A DNA stretch of 64,000 bases from an uncultured cyanobacterium (lineage in GTDB: Bacteria; Cyanobacteriota; Cyanobacteriia; Cyanobacteriales; CAWUOF01), in assembly GCA_963744145.1 (NCBI GenBank), contig CAVUSO010000001.1, positions 4,032,001 through 4,096,000 on the forward strand, written 5' to 3'. How positions within the stretch are numbered: position 1 is the stretch's first letter; each line of letters opens with the position of its first letter. Both the position numbers and the translations under genes were made by a program. The notes beneath the pieces were generated by a model. It made no database searches, was not told where the DNA came from, and worked only from the letters and a program-made list of their open reading frames with translations. This document shows positions 12,454-55,247 of the stretch, in pieces.

Positions 12454-13234
12454 GCATATTCTTGGGTTATCTGGTGGAAAAGACAGTACAGCCTTAGCAG
12501 TTTTGCTGTACAAGGAGATCCCGCAGATGGAATATTTTTTCTGTGACACTCATAAAGAATTGCCAGAAACTTACGAATATCTGGAGCGGATTAAAGCCCG
12601 TCTGGGTATTAAGATCCATTACTTAAGTGCTAATAGGGGGTTTGACCATTGGCTAGATATTCATGATGGATTGTTACCATCGCCCCAAATGCGCTGGTGT
12701 ACCGTCATGATGAAAATTAAACCTCTTGAGGATTTTGTCGGTAATGATGAAACCATTAGTTACATAGGTATTAGAGCAGATGAAAACCGCGAGGGGTATA
12801 TTTCTACTAAGCCAAATATTAAGCCTGTCTTTCCATTTAAAGAACGTGGATTAGTTAAAGCTGATATCTTCCGTATTCTTGAAGAAACTGGGATAGGACT
12901 GCCAGATTATTATCGTTGGCGTAGTCGTTCTGGTTGTTTTTTCTGCTTTTTCCAACGTAAGTATGAGTGGGTTATGTTAGCACAAGAACATCCAGAGCTA
13001 TTTGCTGAAGCGGTTAAATACGAGCAAGGACATAAAGATGGGCGAACTTATACATGGATTCAAGGTGAGACTTTGTTGAAATTGCTAGAGCGTAAAGATG
13101 TGATTATTGCTCAACATGAAAAGTCAATTGCTAAGGAGAAAAAGACAGATCTAAATCGTCCATTAGCTGAAGTACTAGCTTCAGCTTTAGATGATGAAGA
13201 TAATGCTTTGCCATGTTTAGCTTGTCATCTTTAG
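12434..13234 (+). CDS. sspD: SspD-like PAPS-reductase family protein
   Basis: PP-loop LSGGKDS, RWCT, RSGCFFCF, C-terminal CLACHL; overlaps the sspC stop. Confidence 0.88.
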   Translation: MSKKPVRHILGLSGGKDSTALAVLLYKEIPQMEYFFCDTHKELPETYEYLERIKARLGIKIHYLSANRGFDHWLDIHDGLLPSPQMRWCTVMMKIKPLEDFVGNDETISYIGIRADENREGYISTKPNIKPVFPFKERGLVKADIFRILEETGIGLPDYYRWRSRSGCFFCFFQRKYEWVMLAQEHPELFAEAVKYEQGHKDGRTYTWIQGETLLKLLERKDVIIAQHEKSIAKEKKTDLNRPLAEVLASALDDEDNALPCLACHL

Positions 13235-13278
13235 GTAGTAAATAGTAACAAAAAAAAGGTAAAATTTTTTGAGGTTAT

Positions 13279-15057
13279 TTGATAATGACTGAACAGAATA
13301 AGAATTCTTTAGTTGATGTTGACCTAGCTATAGATGCAAGTAGAGTATGTTTTGGATTGAGTCGGATTGGATACACTCCTGCCAGTGCTTTATGTGACAT
13401 AATAGATAACTCAGTTCAAGCTGGAGCTAGAATTATTAATATATTGATTAGAAAAAATAGAGATGATTTAGGTGATAATCGCAAGAACAATGTCAAAGAA
13501 TACATTGTTGTTGATGATGGTAAGGGAATGAGTAATGAAGGTATTCAAAATTCTCTAAAATTAGGGGCTTCTGCGGATAACTATGAATATAACTCTCTAT
13601 CAAAATTTGGTCTAGGCTTGAAGTCTGCTGCGTTTTCTCAAGGGGAAGAACTTCAGGTTATATCTTCAACAGGTGAAGGATTTAATAAATATATAATATC
13701 TCTTCCAGCAATTGCAGATAAACAAAAATATTTTGCTTCTCGATTAGATTTAGATGAATTTGATCAAGAATTGATCCATAAGTATCTATCATCAAAACAA
13801 GGAACAATCATTAGAGTGACACAAATTAGGATGATTAATCATCCTAGTGTAAAAAATACAATTGAAGAATTAAAAACCAAAGTAGGAACTATATATTACT
13901 ACTTTATGAAGGATGGTTTAGATATTAAAATTGACGATGAATCAATAGAGCCATTTGATGTACTTTGTGTTGAAGAAGCTAACTCTAATGGCAATTTAGA
14001 TGAAAACGAATGGGATGGCAAAACAGTTAAATGGATAGAAAAAGAAAAAGAAATAACTCTTGATGCCGATGCTAATGTTAAAGCAAAAATAGAAATAACT
14101 CAACTTCCTTATCCACCACTTTTTGAATTAGAAAAACCTGGAGAGCAAAAGAAAATCAGGGATAAATACAAGATTGATGCTGGTAATTATGGATTTTATG
14201 TTTACAGAAACAAACGCTTAATTTCGTGGGCAGAATCTTTTAACGGAATTATTCCTCCAGACCAAGAATTATACGCCTTTAGAGGTCGTATATTGATTGA
14301 TGAATCAGCCGACGATAGCTTTAATATCGATGTTAAAAAGTCAACCATAACTTTATCTGATGAAGCACTTAACGAAATTAGTGACCGTTCTGATGAATAT
14401 AAACGCAAAAGTAGAAAAGCTTGGAGACGAGCTAACTCCCTAAGAAAACAAATGTTAGGGAGAGATCCAAATTCTACCTCTAATAGTATTGCGTCTGAAT
14501 TTGAACCTCCAGATTTTCTTCCTGGGGAACAACTCCCTACTGTACAAATAGAGAATGAAAAAAATAAAAGAGAAAAAGAGATAGAGACTGAAATGCTCTC
14601 TAGAATCCGGAGAATTGCTGCGCGAGATAAAGGTGAATCTGAAGGACGGAAAATTACTGAGGATGAATTAGAGAAAAGCGATCTTGAAATAGCACTTAAA
14701 GGGAAGTCAAACCCAGAAGCCAGCAAAATTTATAGAGTAGAATCAGTTGAAGATAATGCTCTTTGGGAGCCTTACTATGATACCGATCATGGAGGTTGTG
14801 TAAGAATTAACAAAGGTCATAGGTTTGCCAGATTAGTTTTTGAAGATAATATTGACAATACTGATTTACAGGTGATTTTTGATTTATTGTTATTGCAATT
14901 AGCAACAGCAGAAACTTATATTCAAAAATCAATTACTTCTTCTCCACGCTCTGAAATTGAGAAATTAACTTCTGAATATAGGCGTATTACTTCAGAATAT
15001 TTGGCAGCTTTGTGTCGAAATCGCGAAGGAAAACTTCCTCCTATTAGAGAATCATAG
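13279..15057 (+). CDS. GHKL/MORC-type ATPase (HATPase_c_3), candidate SspF-like effector
   Basis: ALCDIIDNS, DDGKGM, SKFGLGLKSA, GFYVYRNKRLI; likely start ATG 13285. Confidence 0.85.
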   Translation: MIMTEQNKNSLVDVDLAIDASRVCFGLSRIGYTPASALCDIIDNSVQAGARIINILIRKNRDDLGDNRKNNVKEYIVVDDGKGMSNEGIQNSLKLGASADNYEYNSLSKFGLGLKSAAFSQGEELQVISSTGEGFNKYIISLPAIADKQKYFASRLDLDEFDQELIHKYLSSKQGTIIRVTQIRMINHPSVKNTIEELKTKVGTIYYYFMKDGLDIKIDDESIEPFDVLCVEEANSNGNLDENEWDGKTVKWIEKEKEITLDADANVKAKIEITQLPYPPLFELEKPGEQKKIRDKYKIDAGNYGFYVYRNKRLISWAESFNGIIPPDQELYAFRGRILIDESADDSFNIDVKKSTITLSDEALNEISDRSDEYKRKSRKAWRRANSLRKQMLGRDPNSTSNSIASEFEPPDFLPGEQLPTVQIENEKNKREKEIETEMLSRIRRIAARDKGESEGRKITEDELEKSDLEIALKGKSNPEASKIYRVESVEDNALWEPYYDTDHGGCVRINKGHRFARLVFEDNIDNTDLQVIFDLLLLQLATAETYIQKSITSSPRSEIEKLTSEYRRITSEYLAALCRNREGKLPPIRES

Positions 15058-15059
15058 AT

Positions 15060-15570
15060 ATGAATATTTTAGGACAGCCTATTTGGAGCTTAATATCTAC
15101 TTGCTTTAATGGTTCTGATATAGCTTACATATATTTATGGATATCAAAAAAATATAAAGTTATATATGTAGGTCAGACAAACGGAAAACGAGGCTCTTTT
15201 GGTAGAGCTTTTAGTCACATCCAAGATGGCGGTACTCTTCGATTACAGTTTGAAGAAAAAGTTGGTATCAAGCTAGAAGAAGCAGATGATTTAGTTCTTG
15301 TATCTTATCCTCTTCCTCAGCAGCAAGAATATATGAGCATAGAATCCTCATATCGTGAGGCTATCGAATATCTAGTTCAGATAAAACTAAGAGATATTCG
15401 AGGAAAATTAGAATCCTAAATTTAATTTAATTTCTAATATTAGGTCTTCAGATAGAGTCCCAAATTGTACTCTAGAAAAGTACGCAGACGAAATTGTTAA
15501 AAATTTTCAAGACAATTATTCTAAGATAGGCATAAAAACACAAATAACTCAGGATAAAATTAATTTTTAA
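15060..15570 (+). pseudogene. small GIY-YIG-like protein (candidate SspG-like) with +1 frameshift near 15411
   Basis: YIYLW...VIYVGQT..R motif; ORF stops at 15419 but the +1 frame stays open to TAA 15570 (NPKFNLISNIRSSDRV...). Confidence 0.6.
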
Positions 15571-15601
15571 TTAGACTTAAGAATATATAAGAGTAGCCTA
15601 A

Positions 15602-17230
15602 TTGAGATTCGACGACCTACTATCACGAGCAGACGACAAGACGCTACAAAGCTTACTTGGTAGCGCCGCAGTACGCCTAATCAGACTTCTCGACCCTAGT
15701 CTTGCTACCCCAACTCGCCTGCGAGAAATTTTACTCAGCCTGCACTCACGCGAGAGTTTATTGCTATCCAAAAACTCTCGTTTGTGTCTTTTTGAACTTT
15801 TACGACCACAAGAAGCTAAAATCCTTGCTTTAATTCTAGATGCTCCAAATCATCAAGATATCTACCAATCTTTAAAAAAAGTCAAAATTCGTCGTGGTTC
15901 CGATCGGGAACGCGCTCTTTTTGACTTCTTTGAACTGAGTGTACCCGAAATTGAAGTAGCTATAGAAGCCGCATCAGTAGAGTTAACAACACCTAAATAC
16001 CCATTATTCGCACATCAACGCCGCGCCGCACAGCAGGTCAAACAGTACCTTACCCAAGACCCCCGGCGCGTTCTACTACATTTACCTACTGGAGCGGGAA
16101 AGACGCGCACCGCTATGAATGTTATTGCAGATCACCTACGATCGCATGAACCGACCATTGTAATCTGGTTAGCCTATAGTGAAGAACTCTGCGAACAAGC
16201 TGTGGCAGAATTTAAACGCGCATGGGAATATCTTGGCGATCGCCAACTCGTAGTCTACCGTTTCTGGGGAACTCACGAAATAAACTTAGAGCAAGTGCGT
16301 GATGGTATTGTCGTCGCTGGACTTTCTAAAGTCTATAACGCAGTCAGACGTAGCATTAGATTTATTAACCAACTTGGTGCGCGTGCTTCCTTAGTTATTA
16401 TTGATGAAGCACACCAAGCGATCGCCGAAACTTATCAATTAATTCTCGATGCTTTAGTGATTCCCTATAAAAACACAGCACTGCTAGGATTAACAGCAAC
16501 CCCAGGGCGCACCTGGGCTGATATTAGTACAGATGCTAAATTAGCTCAATTTTTTGCCAACCATAAAGTTACTTTGGAAATTCCTGGTTATGAAAATCCT
16601 ATAGAGTATTTGGTGGCAGAGAAATATTTAGCAAAAGCACAGTATCGCTCCCTATTTTATGAAAGCGGCTTAAAGTTAACTGAAAGAGACTTAGCGCAGA
16701 TTGAAACAGATTTAGAAATTCCATCATATATTCTTAATCAATTAGCTGAAGATGAACAACGCAACCTAAGAATTATTTTAGAAATTGAAAAACTCACTTA
16801 TCGACATCAGCGAATTTTAGTGTTTGCTATTTCTGTAGAACACGCTCGACTCTTAGCCTGTGTACTCCAAATCAGGGGTCTAAAAGCAAGTGCTATAACA
16901 GCTAATACGCCTCCCCAACAGCGAGAGCATTTAATCACTAGCTTTAAAGATAATTCAACAGATCCCAAAATACTTTGTAACTTTGGTGTCCTCACTACAG
17001 GATTTGACGCACCACGCACCAGCGCCGCTGTAATTACCCGTCCTATAAAATCTCTGGTTCTTTATAGTCAAATGGTAGGGCGTGCGATTCGAGGACTGAA
17101 GGCAGGAGGCAATGAAACCGCAGAAATAATCACTGTTGTTGACAGTAACTTGCCAGGATTTGGTTCGGTAGCAGAAGCTTTTAGTAACTGGGAAGATGTG
17201 TGGAATTTAACCAAAAATAAAACTGAATGA
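15602..17230 (+). CDS. SF2 DEAH-box helicase (ResIII-like), candidate SspH-like
   Basis: LPTGAGKT, DEAH, GLTATPGR, LTTGFDAP, QMVGRAIR. Confidence 0.92.
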   Translation: MRFDDLLSRADDKTLQSLLGSAAVRLIRLLDPSLATPTRLREILLSLHSRESLLLSKNSRLCLFELLRPQEAKILALILDAPNHQDIYQSLKKVKIRRGSDRERALFDFFELSVPEIEVAIEAASVELTTPKYPLFAHQRRAAQQVKQYLTQDPRRVLLHLPTGAGKTRTAMNVIADHLRSHEPTIVIWLAYSEELCEQAVAEFKRAWEYLGDRQLVVYRFWGTHEINLEQVRDGIVVAGLSKVYNAVRRSIRFINQLGARASLVIIDEAHQAIAETYQLILDALVIPYKNTALLGLTATPGRTWADISTDAKLAQFFANHKVTLEIPGYENPIEYLVAEKYLAKAQYRSLFYESGLKLTERDLAQIETDLEIPSYILNQLAEDEQRNLRIILEIEKLTYRHQRILVFAISVEHARLLACVLQIRGLKASAITANTPPQQREHLITSFKDNSTDPKILCNFGVLTTGFDAPRTSAAVITRPIKSLVLYSQMVGRAIRGLKAGGNETAEIITVVDSNLPGFGSVAEAFSNWEDVWNLTKNKTE

Positions 17231-17341
17231 TTTGTCTAAATTATTAGAAATTTTCTCATTTAGCTACAATTGTTATTTTAGTTAAATTTTGGGTAAATAT
17301 AAAATAGAGCGTTTTTAGATTATGTTGGACACTTCACACAA

Positions 17342-19174
17342 ATGACAGCAAATCCTCATGACATCGTTCCAGCCCATCTAGCAGTACAAGCAATGCGTGA
17401 TAATGGCTACAGGAATGCCGCTTACGCGATCGCTGAACTGATGGACAACTCAATCCAAGCAGGTGCTACTCATGTCGAGTTACTCTGTGCAGAGAAAAAA
17501 GAATTAGTCAATTCTAGACAACGCTCGCGCATCCATCAAGTCGCTGTCTTGGACAACGGTTGTGGTATGGATGCTAGCGTATTGCGGATGGCATTGCAGT
17601 TTGGAAACGGTACTCATCTTAACGAAGCTGATGAAAATCGTGGAATTGGACGTTTTGGGATGGGACTACCTTCTTCATCAATTTCTCAATGCCAGCGTGT
17701 CGAAGTTTGGTCTTGGCAAGAAAGCCCAGAAAATGCCCTTTATAGTTACCTTGACCTCAATGAAATTCGTCAAAGGCGGATGACTGAAGTACCTGAACCA
17801 CAGCTAAAAGCAGTTCCTCATCTCTGGTTGAAAGTAGGTAAATATTTTGAGAGCAGTGGCACCCTAGTCGTTTGGTCGAATATTGATCGTTGTATTTGGA
17901 AAACAAGTAACTCAATTATTGATAATTCTGAACTGCTTATTGGCAGGATGTACCGAAAATTCTTAAATAGCGGTCAAGTTGAGATTCGGATGTTTGCATT
18001 TGAGATAGATGATCTAATCCCCATCGTTAATGAGAAAAAAGCTCGACCCAATGACCCTGGTTATCTGATGGCAAAAACCTCTTGCCCTAAACCCTTTAAC
18101 GAAATCTCAATGTTCCAACCTTGGGGAGATGAGGATCAGTATGAAGCCATCGTCACAATTGATTTTCGGGGTAAGTCCCATGAAGTCAAAGTTCGCTACT
18201 CCTATGCTAAAGAAGAAGCTAGACTAACTGGTAAGCGTGGTAGTAATCCAGGTGAACAACCGCACGGCAAACACGCTGCTAAAAACATTGGTATTTCCCT
18301 TGTACGAGCAGATCGAGAATTAGAACTAGATCAAGAGTTAGTCATTAAATATGATCCAGTAGAACGCTGGTGGGGAGTCGAAATTGAGTTTCCACCAGGA
18401 CTAGACGATTTGTTCGGCGTAACTAATAACAAACAAACAGCACGGAACTTCACTGAAATTGCTAAGTTAGATATAGAATCCCTTTTAGGAAATGATAAAA
18501 CTATCATTGAACTTAAAGACGAACTAAAAGAAGACGAAGATCCAAAAGGTCCTCTACTAGAACTTGTAATGAAAGTAGATGCACAACTTAAAATTATCCG
18601 TCGTTTACTGAAAGCACAGACTAAAGGTACTCGCGGCACTGATGAGAAGCGCTATAAAGAAGTTTCTGAAGAAAAAGGAACTTATAAAACAGGAACTCGC
18701 AAACAAGAAGGCCATAAAGGCGGAAGCGATAAAGATGAATCACTACCCAAAGAAAAGCGTGAAGAAGTCATTAAGGATGCTTTAGTCAAGCAGGGCGTAG
18801 CTGAAATTAGAGCTAAGGAACTCGCGGCAACTACTGTCGATAATGGACTCAAGTACACTTTTGCTGAAACTGACATAGAAACTGCTGCTTTCTTTTCCGT
18901 CACACCAAGAGGTGGTAGTATTATTATCATGCTTAATACTAACCATCCAGCTTACAAAAATCTTATGGAAATTTTAGCAGAAGAGGTAGAAGGAGTTGAC
19001 GTAGAAATCTTACGCGGGCGTTTAACTAACTCCCTGGAAGGATTGAAATTACTTTTGATGGCATGGGCGCGTTATGAAGACGAACAACCAGATGGAAAAA
19101 GAAAACAAGCCGCTCAAGATGCCCGAGTTGACTGGGGAAGAATCGCGCGACAATTCCTAGAAACTGAAGAATAG
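17342..19174 (+). CDS. second GHKL/MORC-type ATPase
   Basis: AIAELMDNS, DNGCGM, GRFGMGL. Confidence 0.88.
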   Translation: MTANPHDIVPAHLAVQAMRDNGYRNAAYAIAELMDNSIQAGATHVELLCAEKKELVNSRQRSRIHQVAVLDNGCGMDASVLRMALQFGNGTHLNEADENRGIGRFGMGLPSSSISQCQRVEVWSWQESPENALYSYLDLNEIRQRRMTEVPEPQLKAVPHLWLKVGKYFESSGTLVVWSNIDRCIWKTSNSIIDNSELLIGRMYRKFLNSGQVEIRMFAFEIDDLIPIVNEKKARPNDPGYLMAKTSCPKPFNEISMFQPWGDEDQYEAIVTIDFRGKSHEVKVRYSYAKEEARLTGKRGSNPGEQPHGKHAAKNIGISLVRADRELELDQELVIKYDPVERWWGVEIEFPPGLDDLFGVTNNKQTARNFTEIAKLDIESLLGNDKTIIELKDELKEDEDPKGPLLELVMKVDAQLKIIRRLLKAQTKGTRGTDEKRYKEVSEEKGTYKTGTRKQEGHKGGSDKDESLPKEKREEVIKDALVKQGVAEIRAKELAATTVDNGLKYTFAETDIETAAFFSVTPRGGSIIIMLNTNHPAYKNLMEILAEEVEGVDVEILRGRLTNSLEGLKLLLMAWARYEDEQPDGKRKQAAQDARVDWGRIARQFLETEE

Positions 19175-20102
19175 CCAAAAAAATTGTGATTATACCGGGA
19201 ATTCAATTAGAAAAGATTTGTACAGAAGCCTATAAGGAAATTCTTCTTGTTGCTCCTTTTATTAAGGCTTCTGTTCTTAAAAAATTACTTACACAAATAT
19301 CTTCTGAAGTCACCATAAAATGTGTTACCCGCTGGCAACCTGAAGAGATTATTGCAGGTGTGAGCGATTTAGAGGTATGGTCTTTGCTTAAACAACGTCC
19401 TCAATCTTTTCTTTGGTTAAGACCCAACTTACACGCTAAATATTACCGTGCTGATGAACAATGCTTAGTGGGTTCAGCTAATTTAACAGCGAAAGCTTTG
19501 GGTTGGTCAAAGCTATCTAATCTTGAACTAATGATTCAATTACCTGCTACTCAAGGAAATTTCCAGACTTTTGAAACCGAACTTTTCCAAGGTTGTATTC
19601 AGGTTGATGAGAATTTGTTTGAGCAAATGTCAACAACAGTGCAGCTATTAACTGCACAATTTCTCAAAAATTTGTCTATTATTAGTATCATTTCTGATAG
19701 TTTAGCAGAAGATTCAGATATTACAGAAATTTGGCTCCCTAGTTTGCGAAATCCAGAAAATTTGTATTTAGCCTATTCGGGACAAGAGGATAGATTGACT
19801 TTAATATCACGGGATGCAGCTGCTCAAGATTTGCGATCGCTATCTATTCTTCCTAATCTAACGAAAATAGCTTTTATATCTTATGTAGGAGTTATTTTAC
19901 TCCAAAAACCTATCATTCAAAAAATAGATTCCTTTGTTATAACACCGCAGACATTTGGTGCTGTAAGAGATTTATTAGCATCTCTTTCTTGTGCAAAGTT
20001 ACCAAATTTTCAAGCTGATCGCGCTTGGCAAACATTAATGCGTTGGTTACTATATTTTCACCCTAATCAAAACACTTAATCAATGCACAGTATTCAGGCA
20101 TT

Positions 20103-20125
20103 AAAAAACCACCTAGGTAGGTGGT
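20103..20125 (-). terminator. intrinsic terminator after the IS110 recombinase
   Basis: ACCACCT-N4-AGGTGGT stem followed by a T6 run on the minus strand. Confidence 0.75.
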
Positions 20126-20139
20126 GCCAAACAATACAG

Positions 20140-21420
20140 TTACATTCTACACAAAATCCTAAACAGCAATCGCATGGCGTAATTAATTAGTTGTGATCGA
20201 GCTAATCTTATTGGTGTTTTGTTAATTTTCATCTCATCAAATTTCTTATGCAATGCAATGTTCAGAGGTAACGTCTCCATCACTGTAATCCACTTACCAT
20301 CAGGTTTACCGTTCTCCCTGAACTGATAACCTTTCTCTACTTGGATATTGCAGTGCTTTACCCTAGCGTGCTTGATTTCAATCCTAGTGAAGCACCATTG
20401 AAACAACGCGGTTTTACAAATATCAGAACCACCGCTACTCACTTTATTTTCTAAATCTCCTGAGCTTTCTTCTCTAGGAGCGCAGCCTAAGCCTTTCAGG
20501 AAACGTGCCAAAGACAGATGGCGCTTAGTATTTCTCTTTTCTCCTGGGTAGAACTTAACATCTGGTTTACCGTCTACCAAATAGTTCTCGATCGGAAAAA
20601 CCTGACTGATCAAGATTGACTGAATCCTCAAGCCAAAGCCAAATTCTTTAAAAACTTTCCGATATTTGTCAAACCTGACATCTTCCAGTAGCAGCGATCG
20701 CAGTTCTCGTTCGATTACAATCTCCTCTTCCTGAATCCCGCAGATCCGTTCAGCGTGCCGTCGCACATCGTCTTTCAATCCAGATCCACCAGTTGCAGCG
20801 TAAAGGCGATCATATTTGGCTGATTTCTTCTTGCCTGCTATCCACGCCCAAAGCAAAGGTAAATTTTCTCCTTCTGGTAATCGGCGTGAATTGATCAATG
20901 CTGCTTCAGGAAATTGCCATGCTAGCTTTTGTCTAGCGTAATTGATAATTGGACTTTGCACCCTATTGAGGTGTGCAAGTTGCAGCACTAGCTCTCGAAT
21001 TCGCACAATTGTGAAATCTCTAACTTGCAAGAATTCTCGATTATTATCTCCGTACTGCATCCCGTAAAGTGCTAATGCAAGAGCGTCGTTAGTATCTTTC
21101 TTATCAGGAAGTCTTAAAGCTTTCCGGTGTTCTTTTAACTTCTTGTGATCAACTAACCTAAGTTCTATCCCAGCACGAGCAAGATGAGTTGACCAAAGCT
21201 TTAGGTAGTTCACCCCCGTTGGTTCTGCTACGGCGATAACATCAGAGCGATCACCAATAAATTCCAACAACAGTTTCAGTCCATGTGAATCTGCATGGAA
21301 AATTTCAAAGTGCTTCTTAGACCTAGCGTATGCTATAATGTCAGCAGGTTTTTCTAACAATAAGCACACGGTCACAGTTGCCTTTGATACGTCCAATCCA
21401 AGGTAACGTTTATTATTCAT
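20140..21420 (-). CDS. IS110 DEDD recombinase/transposase
   Basis: YLGLDVSK, EPTG, KKDTNDA (DEDD RuvC-like) and PREESSG (catalytic-Ser motif); ATG at 21420 preferred over TTG at 21444. Confidence 0.92.
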   Translation of the reverse strand: MNNKRYLGLDVSKATVTVCLLLEKPADIIAYARSKKHFEIFHADSHGLKLLLEFIGDRSDVIAVAEPTGVNYLKLWSTHLARAGIELRLVDHKKLKEHRKALRLPDKKDTNDALALALYGMQYGDNNREFLQVRDFTIVRIRELVLQLAHLNRVQSPIINYARQKLAWQFPEAALINSRRLPEGENLPLLWAWIAGKKKSAKYDRLYAATGGSGLKDDVRRHAERICGIQEEEIVIERELRSLLLEDVRFDKYRKVFKEFGFGLRIQSILISQVFPIENYLVDGKPDVKFYPGEKRNTKRHLSLARFLKGLGCAPREESSGDLENKVSSGGSDICKTALFQWCFTRIEIKHARVKHCNIQVEKGYQFRENGKPDGKWITVMETLPLNIALHKKFDEMKINKTPIRLARSQLINYAMRLLFRILCRM

Positions 21421-21444
21421 TTTTCGCTTAGGTGATATTGCCAA

Positions 21445-21652
21445 AATCTCATCTCTGCGGTTTACGAATCACCCAAAAACCCAATGTTAAACACGAGTTT
21501 GATTCACCCTTAAAACCATTAATTAGAGAGAGATTAAGTTGAGTTATGAGTAGCCGAGTTTATGAAAATAGAAAAACCCTAAAGAGTTTGTTTCTTCCTT
21601 AAAACCCTAAGTTACTCTTATCCAACTGCAAGAAGGTTTGGAAGCTTCCTGC
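21445..21652 (-). ncRNA. putative bridge RNA (5' hairpin, target-binding loop, donor-binding loop)
   Basis: Two copies of scaffold GAGTTTG-N9-TAAAACC (plus strand) with N9 = TTTCTTCCT (21591-21599, target match) and ATTCACCCT (21502-21510, donor match); opposite-side guides GAAAATA (21564-21570) and ATCACCC (21468-21474); closing stems visible. Confidence 0.8.
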
Positions 21653-21706
21653 TACCTCCCCAGGGGAGAGGTTTCGTCTAGTGGCTAACTAGACTCATCA
21701 GGAAGG
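21645..21706 (-). ncRNA. type I hammerhead ribozyme
   Basis: Minus strand: CUGAUGA, stem II GUCUAGU/ACUAGAC, GAAA, stem III ACCUCUCC/GGGGAGGU, GUA triplet, short stem I with one U-C mismatch. Confidence 0.8.
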
Positions 21707-21971
21707 TCTAAAACTCAGCGTTCATTTCTATGGGGTGAGGTAAATCATCAGGTTAGTCCTCATCATCATCAGGGTGATCCTGGTCTACGACGGTATAACC
21801 TTCTAGAGTTATGTCCTCGACTTCAAATAAGTTACTAGGTATCTCGTCATAATGCTCATCTGGGTGATCATTTTCTTCCTAATCGTTATGCTTTATCAGT
21901 TCCTAATTACTCTGAAGTATTTTACCGACTCAAAACTAACAAGTAGTTTATTTAAGTAACATAGGCAAAGT

Positions 21972-23141
21972 ATGAATATTCAAACCTCTCAAACTCGTGC
22001 AATATATCTTGACTACCACTCTACAACACCTGTCGATCCAAGAGTGGCAGAGATAATGCTGTATCACCTAACAGTAAATTTTGGCAACGCTAGCAGTACA
22101 GATCATACTTATGGCGATGAAGCAGCAGAAGCAATATTACAAACTTGTCGTAACGTTGCTGAATTAATAGGAGCTAAACCGCGAGAAGTTATATTTACTT
22201 CAGGAGCAACTGAAAGCATTAATTTAGTAATCCAAGGGAGTTTAGTTAATTCTGAAAAACCTCAAAAGATTGGTTTACTATCAGTTGAACATAAAGCAGT
22301 TTTAGATACCTGTTATACTTTAGCGAAAAAGAGACTTGTTCAACTAATTGAACTCCAAGTTGATTCAATGGGTAGACTTGACCTCGAATATCTAGAGCAA
22401 ATTTGTAGATCAGGTTTATCTCTGCTTTGTATAATGGCAGCTAATAATGAGGTAGGTAATATTTACCCGATTAAAGAAATTGGCAAAATTGCTCAGAATT
22501 ATGATATTCCTTTCTTGTGTGATGCTTCCCAAGCAGTTGGAAAAATTCCGATTAACTTTGAAGACTGGGGAATTACATATTTAGCAATTTCAGCTCATAA
22601 ACTTTATGGACCAAAAGGCTCAGGGGCTTTAATTGTAAGAAAAGGTCATAACTTAACCCCTCTGATATTTGGAGGAGGACATCAAAGAGGGATGAGGTCT
22701 GGAACTCTTAATGTCCCTGGTATAGTTGGATTAGGAGAAGCTTGTCACCTTCGTTTAGAGGAAATGGATACAGATGAAAAAGCGATCGCAAATCTTAGAG
22801 ATAGATTGCAAAACTTACTAATAGATAAAATTCCTGGTTTAGTAATTAACGGAGATAGATCAAATCGTCTACCGGGCAATCTTCATATTTCAATCCCAGA
22901 TGTTCCTAATAGCGCCATTATTGCTAGAGTACGCTCTAAATTAGCTATTTCAACTGGTTCAGCTTGTTCATCAGGTGTTGAAGCTCCTTCTCATGTACTT
23001 CGAGCTATGGGTCTTCCTTCTCATATAATTGAAGGTGCATTACGGATTGGGATTGGTAAATTTACGACATCTGAAGATATAGAACAAGCTGCTGATATTC
23101 TTTCAACTGCCGTTGGTCGTACTCGTCAAGTTTTGTCTTAA
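21972..23141 (+). CDS. sspA: cysteine desulfurase (SspA/DndA/IscS-like)
   Basis: YLDYHSTTP, SAHKLYGPKG, STGSACSS; last gene of the ssp cluster. Confidence 0.88.
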   Translation: MNIQTSQTRAIYLDYHSTTPVDPRVAEIMLYHLTVNFGNASSTDHTYGDEAAEAILQTCRNVAELIGAKPREVIFTSGATESINLVIQGSLVNSEKPQKIGLLSVEHKAVLDTCYTLAKKRLVQLIELQVDSMGRLDLEYLEQICRSGLSLLCIMAANNEVGNIYPIKEIGKIAQNYDIPFLCDASQAVGKIPINFEDWGITYLAISAHKLYGPKGSGALIVRKGHNLTPLIFGGGHQRGMRSGTLNVPGIVGLGEACHLRLEEMDTDEKAIANLRDRLQNLLIDKIPGLVINGDRSNRLPGNLHISIPDVPNSAIIARVRSKLAISTGSACSSGVEAPSHVLRAMGLPSHIIEGALRIGIGKFTTSEDIEQAADILSTAVGRTRQVLS

Positions 23142-23259: not shown

Positions 23260-23348
23260 GCAATTCCTAATAATGATTATTTTTAGATAGAAAATAAAGT
23301 CTCAATACTTGAGTTAATCTAAATTAACTGATCCGATCTAACCATTAG
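23260..23348 (+). repeat. ~90-bp direct repeat, copy 2 of 177-269
   Basis: Direct comparison. Confidence 0.9.
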
Positions 23349-23380: not shown

Positions 23381-23830
23381 GAGGGCAAAGCATTCCGGTC
23401 ATAGTTTTCTTCATTTAGGCAATCACTGATCTGCCGGAATGCTTTGCCCCTACAGACCCGGACAAAATTCTGTTCATGTTTTATTTAGGTTCGCTATAGA
23501 GCAATACGGTTCAGTTATCTGTAGGGGCGAAGCATTCGGGCGATCATTTATTGCTCAAGTTCGTTAATATTATATCCGAATGCTTCGCCCTTCTGCGCCG
23601 ATATCTGTAGGGGCATAGCATTCGGGCGATCATTTATTGCTCAAGTTTTACCCTGAGCGAAGTCGAAGGGCCGTTAATATTATATCCGAATGCTTCGCCC
23701 AGTTCTGCTGCGCCGATATCTGTAGGGGCGAAGCATTCGGGCGATCATTTATTGCTCAAGTTTTACCCTGAGCGAAGTCGAAGGGCCGTTAATATTATAT
23801 CCGAATGCTTCGCCCTTCTGCGCCGATATC
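23381..23830. repeat. GTAG-type REP-like palindromes, including three tandem units at ~23520-23830
   Basis: GTAGGGGCGAAGCATTCGG...CCGAATGCTTCGCCC inverted repeats. Confidence 0.9.
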
Positions 23831-23897
23831 TAAGAAATCGCGCCGATGCTCATATTTAATTAATCAAATTTCGCCGATCGCGATGGGAGTCAACTTG

Positions 23898-26753: not shown

Positions 26754-27010
26754 GTAGGGGCAAAGCATTTCGGCGCATAAATAAATAATTAAACGTTTAC
26801 CCTGAGCGTAGTCGAAGGGAAGAATAATAAGACCGAAATGCTTTGCCCCCATATTTAAGCAACCAACAGATCAACTACATACTATATATATTGCAATATG
26901 GTTCAGTTAAGGATATTTTTGAGCATCTCGGCGCAGAAGAGGGTGAAGCATTCGGGTATAATATTACTGCTTTGATTGTTCAATTATCGCCCGAATGCTT
27001 CACCCCTACA
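26754..27010. repeat. two REP-like palindromic elements between convergent genes
   Basis: GTAGGGGCAAAGCATTTCGG..CCGAAATGCTTTGCCCC and GGGTGAAGCATTCGGG..CCCGAATGCTTCACCCCTAC. Confidence 0.85.
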
Positions 27011-46333: not shown

Positions 46334-46392
46334 TTATTAAAAATATGTTGTTGGCTTTTAGAGATCTAAAAATCAACAACATGTTTTTGCAT

Positions 46393-46775
46393 GTAGGGGT
46401 GAAGCATTCGGGCGACAATTGAACAATCCAGGTTTACCCTGAGTTTACCCTGAGCGTAGTCGAAGGGCAGCAATATTAGATCCGAATGCTTCACCCTGCT
46501 TTTGCGCCGAGCTCCCCAAAAATATTCTTAACTGAATGGATTTTAATATTATAGTTGATCTGTTGGTTGCATAGATGGTGAGGGCAAAGCATTTCGGTAA
46601 TATTATTCTTCCCTTCGACTTCGCCCCCTTCGACTTCGCCCTTCGACTACGCTCAGGGTAAACTCAGGGCAAGCTTCGACTTCGCCCTTCGACTTCGCTC
46701 AGGGTAAACTCAGGGAACACTCAGGGTAAACATTTAAGCCATCATTTATTTGCCGAAATGCGAAAGCCCCTACAG
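46393..46775. repeat. REP-like elements carrying nested copies of a ~24-nt mini-element
   Basis: GTAGGGGTGAAGCATTCGG..CCGAATGCTTCACCC; repeated CCCTTCGACTWCGC and CTCAGGGTAAAC pieces. Confidence 0.9.
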
Positions 46776-55063: not shown

Positions 55064-55247
55064 AGTTTAGCCAAATTTGGGCGATCGCGATTAAATCCCC
55101 ACGATAATTGATCGCTCAAGTTTTACCATGAGGGTCGTCGAAGGGATGATCACTGACAGATCAGTTGAATATAAACAAACTGGTTGGTCGCTGTCAGAAG
55201 AGAGAAAAAAGATCACATTCACGGATGGGTTTAAAGTGGGGTAATTT

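Follow-up and report, generated by a model that had tools for sequence, protein, structure and literature searches.

The 64,000-nucleotide stretch analysed here, called the window below, comes from an uncultured cyanobacterium (contig CAVUSO010000001.1) and contains an insertion element of about 1.82 kb. We read this element, with a probability of roughly 80%, as a member of the IS110 family whose non-coding left end lies on the minus strand and encodes a hammerhead ribozyme motif, then a two-loop bridge RNA (21652-21445) and, directly downstream, the recombinase gene. The reading is carried by the anatomy of the element, by its homology to related cyanobacterial loci, by covariation in its RNA and by the correspondence between the guides of the RNA and the flanks of the insertion. 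The parts on which the argument rests are the following.

20054..21869, minus strand: the insertion element, placed by its junction reads and by patterns unique within the window
21875-21870 (flank side) and 20059-20054 (element side), minus strand: the 6-bp direct repeat GAAAAT that bounds the element
21872..21880, minus strand: AGGAAGAAA of the flank, the left target half (LT), which agrees with the left target guide at 21599-21591 at every position (9/9)
21862..21868, minus strand: start of the left end (RD), ATCACCC, complementary to GGGTGAT of the right donor guide at 21474-21468 (7/7)
20050..20064, minus strand: right junction, with the right end (RE) AGGGT-GAA followed by the flank AATATAG, placed by the junction read and by 12-mer uniqueness
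21537..21627, minus strand: target-binding domain with basal stem, internal loop and apical stem-loop, from the fold and from alignment pair counts
21591..21599, minus strand: left target guide (LTG), AGGAAGAAA, ending in the invariant core GAA plus one base
21564..21571, minus strand: right target guide (RTG), CTATTTTC, with the pairing part TATTTTC ending in the invariant TTC
21445..21535, minus strand: donor-binding domain, from the fold and from alignment pair counts
21502..21510, minus strand: left donor guide (LDG), AGGGTGAAT
21466..21474, minus strand: right donor guide (RDG), GGGTGATTC
20140..21420, minus strand: intact gene for a 426-aa recombinase of the IS110 family (DEDD plus Ser)

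Read on the minus strand, the left junction (21880-21862) is AGGAAGAAAAT|GATCACCC and the right junction (20064-20050) is AGGGTGAAAATATAG. Since both junctions share GAAAAT, the crossover lies somewhere inside this repeat. Loop 1 of the RNA carries the target of the insertion, with AGGAA-GAA in the LTG and GAA-AATA as the complement of the RTG. Loop 2 matches the two ends of the element, with AGGGT-GAA in the LDG and ATCACCC as the complement of the RDG. The preliminary description of this region, made from the letters alone, had claimed that the guides match the insertion's own target and donor, and this holds for all four: besides the two matches at the left junction listed above, TATTTTC of the RTG (21570-21564) complements GAAAATA at the right junction at 7/7 positions, and AGGGTGAA of the LDG (21510-21503) equals the right end at 20064-20057 at 8/8. 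The 64 kb hold a single instance of the composite pattern AGGAAGAAA-N0-8-ATCACCC, and 100 shuffles produced no instance at all; the exact 12-mer AGGGTGAAAATA occurs once in the window. When one mismatch is allowed, the rebuilt 12-nt target is found at three further places in the window, all of them unoccupied. The predicted target of the RNA may be written out as AGGAAGAAAATA or AGGAAGAAAATATAG, and its predicted donor as AGGGTGAA...TCACCC.

Along the minus strand the flank ...CGATTAGGAAGAAAAT meets the left end GATCACCCAGATG... at 21869. There follow an open frame that has no start codon, the hammerhead-like motif, the two-domain RNA, a box ATCACCT, the 426-aa open reading frame (ORF), a terminator-like hairpin and the right end ...TGATTAGGGTGAAAAT, which runs to 20054 and borders the flank ATAGTAACC.

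The two domains of the RNA are built on one scaffold. As first described, the plus-strand notation shows GAGTTTG-TTTCTTCCT-TAAAACC around the guide at 21591-21599 and GAGTTTG-ATTCACCCT-TAAAACC around that at 21502-21510, each unit being preceded by GTTTAY-GAA-var-AAAAACCC. Stems close both internal loops, the target loop precedes the donor loop as in IS621, and the predicted folding energy is lower for the minus strand (-52.2 kcal/mol) than for the plus strand (-40.0 kcal/mol). GC-to-AU swaps have occurred in all four loop-flanking helices of the window with pairing kept. Each module has a scaffold that is in turn directly repeated (GCUUU-guide-AAGC ... GCUUU-guide-AAGC in relatives), which makes each loop pseudo-symmetric. 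The suggestion that the two loops look like a duplication of one module is borne out in part. Between the two window modules 40 positions are identical (30 on average and at most 35 after shuffling), more than in any relative (median 31, range 25-37). The near-identity is therefore a feature of this lineage, reached through parallel GC-to-AU swaps in both modules; what all relatives have in common is the architecture and not the sequence. It fits concerted change in the window lineage, and it is not proof of an ancestral duplication.

Relatives were taken as the best 80 of 260 related stretches in a scan of species-representative genomes, together with plasmid CP150887.1, found by tblastn; a blastn search of the element against the plasmid collection gave no match. 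A homologous RNA precedes nearly all retained relatives, about 70 cyanobacterial recombinases at approximately 50% identity. We aligned the window with 66 distinct homologues, 67 sequences in total, on a structure that we specified. Pairing is found in 90.5% of cells, against 80.7 ± 0.4% with shuffled partners and at most 55% with slid partners, and 38 of the 48 base pairs have changed on both sides in a compensatory manner. The covariation that the preliminary description had proposed as a check on homologous ends is thus present. The four helices that close the two internal loops, paired in the window, are paired in 97-99.5% of cells. Three G-U pairs, already taken to favour the minus strand, are kept in 66/67, 50/67 and 55/67 sequences (columns 37-90, 58-67 and 181-196), and their conservation places the RNA on the minus strand. 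The guide columns behave very differently in the two loops, with an entropy of 1.6-2.0 bits in loop 1 and 0-0.2 bits in loop 2. GAA on the 5' guide strands and TTC on the 3' guide strands are invariant. As all four guide strands hold one or the other, the strand-exchange core is GAA. The RDG is invariant across the family except in one sequence, which has GGGAGATTC.

Correspondence between guides and flanks extends to these relatives. Loop 1 could be parsed in 69 of 81 rows (80 loci and the window), while four rows with a short upstream region and eight with pattern failure or mis-parsing were dropped. A right-end motif, TA[GT]AGTGAA or TAGGGTGAA, lies 3' of the gene in 67 of the 69 parsed loci including the window, and the motif ...TAGAGTGAA is common to 66 of the 68 relatives examined. 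When the six bases after this motif are compared with the complement of each locus's own RTG, at least five match in 45 of 67 loci (six matches in 11 loci, five in 34, four in 9, three in 1, two in 5, one in 4 and none in 3). Over 65 unique pairs the mean match is 4.26, compared with 1.80 after shuffling (maximum 2.31 in 2000 shuffles). The first five bases usually match, which defines the RTG as GAA plus five. On the donor side, LDG and right end are equal in relatives (AGAGTGAA and AGAGTGAA). In CP150887.1 both have changed together to AGACTGAA, and the RTG complement GAAGTTGT matches its flank at 8/8.

A structured region in front of a gene could also be just a 5' leader that controls translation of the recombinase, with the flank matches serving as terminal repeats recognised by the protein. 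For such a leader speaks a box complementary to GGGUG that stands beside the ribosome-binding region in 59 of 65 homologues, and the left flank and the right end of the window element do share GATTAGG..GAAAAT at 13 of 15 positions. However, no protein-only model predicts that the 3' strand of loop 1 tracks the unrelated right flanks of 45 of 67 loci. Neither the contrast between a variable loop 1 and a constant loop 2 nor a predicted protein fold that is that of bridge recombinases agrees with a mere leader, and this explanation, already disfavoured, appears very improbable to us. The box itself (21430..21436, minus strand, ATCACCT in the window) lies between the bridge RNA and the start codon and is complementary to the RDG. 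CACC[CT] is found about 30 nt 3' of the RDG in the 59 of 65 distinct homologues named above, against 5.8% of background windows. The box, GAACCACCC in Nostoc types, abuts the ribosome-binding site and resembles a second RD-like site. It could pair in cis with the guide and so link guide availability to translation.

The protein encoded downstream agrees with the bridge RNA reading. It matches NCBIfam NF051857 (IS110 family transposase) with 437 bits and PF01548, the N-terminal RuvC-like DEDD domain, with E 1.4e-8 and 35.1 bits over residues 7-167 (cut-off 29). D10, E66, D106, D109 and S320-G321 are invariant in a 23-sequence alignment, and the SG motif marks S320 as the putative catalytic serine. 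An AlphaFold model (pLDDT 77.9) has as its ten best Foldseek matches only ISCro4 (9t56) and IS621 (8wt9, 8wt6), at E 2e-9 to 2e-7 and probability 1.00, with target-normalised TM scores of 0.49-0.53 and 13-15% identity. The predicted fold thus comes nearest to the bridge recombinases of ISCro4 and IS621 bound to their bridge RNAs. After these, Foldseek lists Nop56/58 of box C/D ribonucleoproteins (RNPs) and TIGR-TasR, and the weak chance Rfam matches on the bridge RNA are to box C/D small nucleolar RNA (snoRNA) models. Kinship among bridge recombinases, box C/D RNPs and the RNA-guided TIGR-TasR systems has been reported, and these matches fit it. No other protein falls into the cluster of the window protein (1 member, 1 contig). 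Its nearest relatives are 51-55% identical, and those that carry a name are all cyanobacterial. Taken together, the IS110-family neighbour, the IS621/ISCro4-like predicted fold, the covarying stems, the variable loop 1 beside the constant loop 2 and the match of guides and flanks support the bridge RNA that had first been proposed from the letters.

The 5' limit had been drawn too tightly at 21620. We find that the RNA extends further, to about 21652, and that directly 5' of it stands a hammerhead motif of which the preliminary description made no mention.

21627..21707, minus strand: type I hammerhead ribozyme motif with a 3' docking hairpin, found by covariance model
21701-21695, 21675-21673, 21672, 21654 and 21653, minus strand: hammerhead core, that is CUGAUGA, GAA, A15.1, U16.1 and A as H17

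From 21701 to 21652 the minus strand reads CUGAUGA, a 6-bp stem II, GAAA, an 8-bp stem III and then GUA|G. Cleavage is predicted between 21653 and 21652 and would create the 5' end of the bridge RNA, while nearly all of the ribozyme would stay with the upstream fragment. Trained on 36 relatives and not on the window, a covariance model finds a single match in the 64 kb (21707-21627, 41 bits, E 3e-9). In 73 of 81 loci it finds one match each, in front of the bridge RNA. Three of the eight loci without a match are cut by contig ends (L058, L074, L077), and in three others no bridge RNA was found either (L069, L070, L078). The remaining two, from Spirulina (L054, L055), keep the bridge RNA and have a C/G-rich hairpin (CCCCCTCACCGGGGGG) in place of the hammerhead; the right flank of L054 matches its guide at 8/8. 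Family-wide, 86.8% of cells are paired (70.0% with shuffled partners, at most 41% with slid partners), 18 of 25 pairs are compensatory on both sides, and pairing by helix amounts to 94.3% in stem II, 87.5% in stem III, 91.7% in stem I and 87.1% in a pseudoknot. The alignment was fitted to the model, so that these counts lean towards the structure. The pseudoknot joins loop II (GACUC) to the loop (GAGUC) of a hairpin 3' of stem I, and three of its five pairs are compensatory. A canonical core is present in 65 of 74 family matches, and the window has CUGAUGA, GAA, A-U and A17.

One sub-group (L023, L025, L028, L030, L037-L039, L042, L046, L049, L051, L056, L059) has stem II replaced by a branched insert of about 45 nt with two extra hairpins rich in GCGATCGC, and scores 37-48 bits compared with 57-92.

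Does this hammerhead mature the bridge RNA? The motif may be real and yet serve another role, such as uncoupling the recombinase mRNA from passenger transcription or acting on mRNA stability, or it may persist as a non-catalytic fossil. In relatives it lies exactly at the stop codons of upstream ORFs, L054 and L055 show that it is dispensable for some bridge RNAs, and 9 of 74 cores are non-canonical or could not be aligned. The strong covariation of the ribozyme structure argues the other way, as does its fixed position relative to the bridge RNA, since in all aligned loci some 23-25 nt separate the cut from the basal stem of the target-binding domain. We consider a role other than bridge RNA maturation rather unlikely. 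The roles are also not mutually exclusive, because any cut at this place sets the 5' end of the bridge RNA as well.

The relatives also carry passenger ORFs in the same orientation. These lie 5' of the ribozyme, between about 300 and more than 2500 nt before the recombinase gene; L041 30-2199 and L002 59-2193 are examples. One encodes a protein of about 390 aa with a weak AAA_16 match, two to three small ones have no Pfam match at E up to 0.01, and the last ORF often ends inside or at the ribozyme. A shared leader, GTAAAAAATATCACA, stands before many passenger ORFs (18 loci). With these ORFs upstream, the elements of the relatives look much larger than a plain insertion sequence (IS). The window element has the following probable counterpart.

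21753..21875, minus strand: acidic open frame of 41 codons including the stop, without an ATG, GTG or TTG start, ending in DHPDEHYDEIPSNLFEVEDITLEGYTVVDQDHPDDDED and the stop, read from the sequence

Intact co-oriented ORFs of relatives have acidic tails and end at the ribozyme, and by this likeness the frame is probably the 3' remnant of a passenger gene. Inside it, GATCACCC[A/T]GATGA occurs twice (21862-21869 and 21773-21780, minus strand, 90 nt apart; DHPDE and DHPDD in the frame), the second copy being a further match to the RDG.

Plasmid CP150887.1 may give the outline of a complete element. Its right junction matches the guides perfectly (L082 12961-12975). In 22 kb upstream there is one candidate left junction, TAAAAAGAA|TCCCCAG (L081 10182-10194), which agrees with the LTG at 8/9 and has an RD-like sequence next to it. 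It is followed by three TAAGTCAG repeats and some 13 annotated genes, including a small site-specific integrase and a helix-turn-helix regulator. The candidate element spans about 10.1 kb (approximately 12970-23108) and may be a cargo-carrying bridge-recombinase element.

If the analogy to IS621 holds, the two strands of the target AGGAA-GAA-AATA would pair with loop 1 and the joined ends with loop 2, the RNA would align the excised circle with the target inside a recombinase tetramer, and strand exchange would take place at GAA. The recombinase would then be programmable. From its position and conservation, the hammerhead would cut the primary transcript at 21653|21652 and free a bridge RNA with a defined 5'-OH end. 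The upstream RNA thereby removed would be, in relatives, the mRNA of the co-oriented passenger genes. With such a ribozyme the RNA could be part of any transcript that comes from upstream and would not depend on a junction promoter, and the window copy would be a minimal derivative that has lost its passenger genes. For the clade as a whole we propose tentatively, and as possible rather than probable, that a natural hammerhead cuts the bridge RNA from a long transcript and that recombinase and RNA, placed behind operon-like passenger genes at their 3' end, act as an RNA-guided integrase for multi-kb elements (about 10 kb in CP150887.1, more than 3.7 kb in most relatives). The RDG-complementary box would couple guide availability to translation, and the 1.8-kb copy of the window would be a stripped-down form.

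A number of observations weigh against reading the window copy as a bridge RNA element with its ribozyme and recombinase, whose functions we infer throughout. The first concerns the ends. The LDG has a mismatch at position 9 (T vs A) and the RTG one at position 8. The guide strings agree with both ends, as the preliminary description had it, but the donor match is not contiguous: the donor-binding loop specifies AGGGT-GAA-TCACCC, and the joined ends actually read AGGGT-GAA-AATGA-TCACCC, the five bases AATGA between the core and the RD being left unspecified by the guide. Non-contiguous pairing of RDG and RD has been reported for IS621 (PMC11208160), but the offset here exceeds it, and we offer no explanation. 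For the relatives, no left end came to light in the 2.5 kb of upstream sequence, seemingly because of the cargo. A search with each relative's own LTG gave best matches of 7-8/9 at scattered places upstream, equal to chance, and a search of the same flanks for a GAA-N0-6-TCACCC-like motif after the LTG recovered only the window. Pairing of LTG with LT and of RDG with RD consequently rests on the window (9/9 and 7/7) and on the CP150887.1 candidate (8/9). Three candidate boundaries were rejected or gave no edge: the enriched motif GTAAAAAATATCACA is the passenger leader described above, homology limits between copies L002, L003, L004 and L005 are ragged, and the bases preceding the pre-coding GAA-CCACCC box match the LTGs at 0-4/6 (two loci, by eye).

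The second group of such observations concerns the ribozyme, expression and the protein. Changes in C3 or U4, or misalignment, are seen in the nine exceptional ribozymes mentioned above. Stem I of the window is paired at 4/5 positions with a U-C mismatch, its pseudoknot is down to about three pairs, and the alternative helices CUUCCUG/CAGGAAG and GCAGGAAG/CUUCUUGC are predicted to be about 10 kcal/mol more stable than the active fold; the activity of this copy is doubtful for these reasons. Minimum-energy folding as a test of ribozyme competence was rejected, as it also misses the active fold of canonical relatives. Rfam finds no hammerhead in 19500-22500 or 21400-21900, with no match to RF00163 at E up to 10 and only chance snoRNA or untranslated-region matches at E of at least 0.3. 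On five whole relatives it reports no hammerhead at E up to 1, only microRNA-like chance matches elsewhere. RF00163 does match a 181-nt slice of L041 (E 0.0017), but its 22.7 bits fall short of the gathering score, which is 34. A simple scan, from which cyanobacterial promoters may differ, found no sigma-70-like promoter in the left end, and an equally simple and weak scan of a simulated junction of right and left end found no sigma-70 site that spans it, the sole match being TTGGCA-19-TTTAAT inside the right end. The C-terminal Tnp domain PF02371 scores 13.7 bits in the window protein (E 0.087, cut-off 21.3) and is weak in all 23 aligned members (best E 2.5e-5), and the family profile has no match among PDB sequences at E up to 1. 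Finally, no second copy of the element exists within the 64-kb window and the protein cluster has one member, so that there is no sign of recent mobility.

Many of the same features would suit a genuine bridge RNA in an immobile relic, that is, a deletion derivative with lost passenger genes, an aberrant left end and a drifting ribozyme. Single-copy status, the start-less 41-codon frame abutting the left end, the five unspecified left-end bases, the single LDG and RTG mismatches, the weak stem I with its competing helices and the missing promoter all lean this way. Against decay stand an intact recombinase ORF with all invariant residues, four guides that still match their own junctions, scaffold helices that were every one kept by compensatory swaps, and an intact ribozyme core. 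We regard the relic as a possibility short of even odds. It is compatible with the IS110-family reading, in which hammerhead motif, bridge RNA and recombinase gene follow one another from the left end.

The remaining features concern the surroundings of the element.

20108..20125, minus strand: terminator-like hairpin with a T-run, 3' of the recombinase gene

This hairpin overlaps an outward-facing promoter-like pair, TTGGCA-19 nt-TTTAAT, inside the right end (20095-20135, minus strand). In a circle the pair would point across the junction into the left end; a good sigma-70 site would have a shorter spacer. The element has inserted near the 3' end of an ORF of 297 aa (19186-20079, plus strand) with a weak match to a PLD-like domain (E 1.6e-5). 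This ORF now ends eight codons into the element, and the rebuilt empty site would extend it by 25 codons. The right end imitates the target (ACCCTAATC vs TTCCTAATC), so that the first residues to be replaced are similar ones. Short dispersed or tandem repeat families of 44-111 nt (for example GTTTACCCTGAGCG.AGTCGAAGGG) occur near the element at 23516-23831, 26776-26970, 46388-46715 and 55102-55145 and are unrelated to it. Positions 193-269 (77 nt) have a second copy, 97% identical, at 23272-23348.

Bridge recombinases are under development as programmable tools for genome rearrangement, and how bridge RNAs are produced in nature is an open point. The 2026 paper on IS621 terms it a chicken-and-egg problem (PMC13626964). 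If our reading is true, a built-in self-cleaving ribozyme in place of a junction promoter would be a second natural solution, and it would be the natural counterpart of the hepatitis delta virus (HDV) ribozymes used by engineers. The clade also adds diversity, with a 3-nt GAA core, a compact and internally repeated scaffold, 13-15% identity to IS621 and apparent kilobases of cargo. When Durrant et al. analysed conserved IS110 residues, they required a PF02371 match with E below 1e-3 (PMC11208160), and a 2026 preprint selected its loci by the architecture PF01548 then PF02371 (bioRxiv 10.64898/2026.10.21.760802). Members of this clade may have been missed, because the window protein fails the PF02371 filter; some relatives pass it, the best with the E-value given above. 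Our literature search, whose scope left most subscription journals and the supplements and figures of the preprint outside, found no description of a natural ribozyme beside a bridge RNA or of a cyanobacterial bridge RNA. Bridge RNAs of IS110 elements are known, and the present one is a divergent member with another core and scaffold; within this scope we rate the fusion of ribozyme and bridge RNA as new among them.

Compared with IS621 and ISCro4, the overall plan is conserved. In all of them the left end holds the RNA, in front of the recombinase gene, and of its two internal loops the target loop comes first (PMC11208160, PMC13626964). The 5' guide equals the top strand left of the core, the 3' guide complements the top strand on the right, and both include the core. 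The DEDD and Ser motifs are shared, and the predicted fold matches (Foldseek E 2e-9). Unlike these elements, the window protein has 13-15% identity to them with no PDB match by sequence and a Tnp domain below the Pfam cut-off, its core is GAA and not the CT of IS621 (CT defines IS621, not the whole family), both window loops have a near-identical, internally repeated scaffold, and the scan for a junction promoter found none. The RNA is preceded by a hammerhead motif, and in relatives passenger genes lie between left end and RNA. The IS1111-group seekRNA element ISEc11 belongs to the same superfamily and likewise has an RNA-guided DEDD transposase with target-complementary segments in a non-coding region, but there the RNA lies downstream of the transposase gene (PMC11187229). 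The ribozymes mentioned in that study are engineered HDV ribozymes in constructs and not natural parts.

The motif itself resembles the type I hammerhead (RF00163) in its CUGANGA, GAAA and GUH core, in its three helices with the open end in stem I, and in a tertiary contact between loop II and the stem I side. It differs from RF00163 in scoring below the gathering threshold, in making the tertiary contact as a 5-bp pseudoknot to a hairpin loop 3' of stem I, and in being fused to a bridge RNA. The preprint cited above describes cluster 1,533,398, a divergent hammerhead candidate with 152 loci and a three-stem CUGA motif, for which all six Rfam hammerhead models are sub-threshold (best 26.4 bits on RF00163). 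In motif and in these sub-threshold scores it resembles the ribozyme motif found here. The preprint, the one paper in our search that deals with both subjects, treats bridge RNAs and this hammerhead cluster as separate examples (bioRxiv 10.64898/2026.10.21.760802). A natural fusion of a ribozyme with an RNA-guided transposon is known from IStrons, which combine a group I intron with an IS605-type element (PMC13521648). The ribozyme class, the enzyme and the purpose are different there: the IStron splices the element out of the host mRNA (PMC13521648), while the hammerhead of the cyanobacterial element would cut its bridge RNA free.

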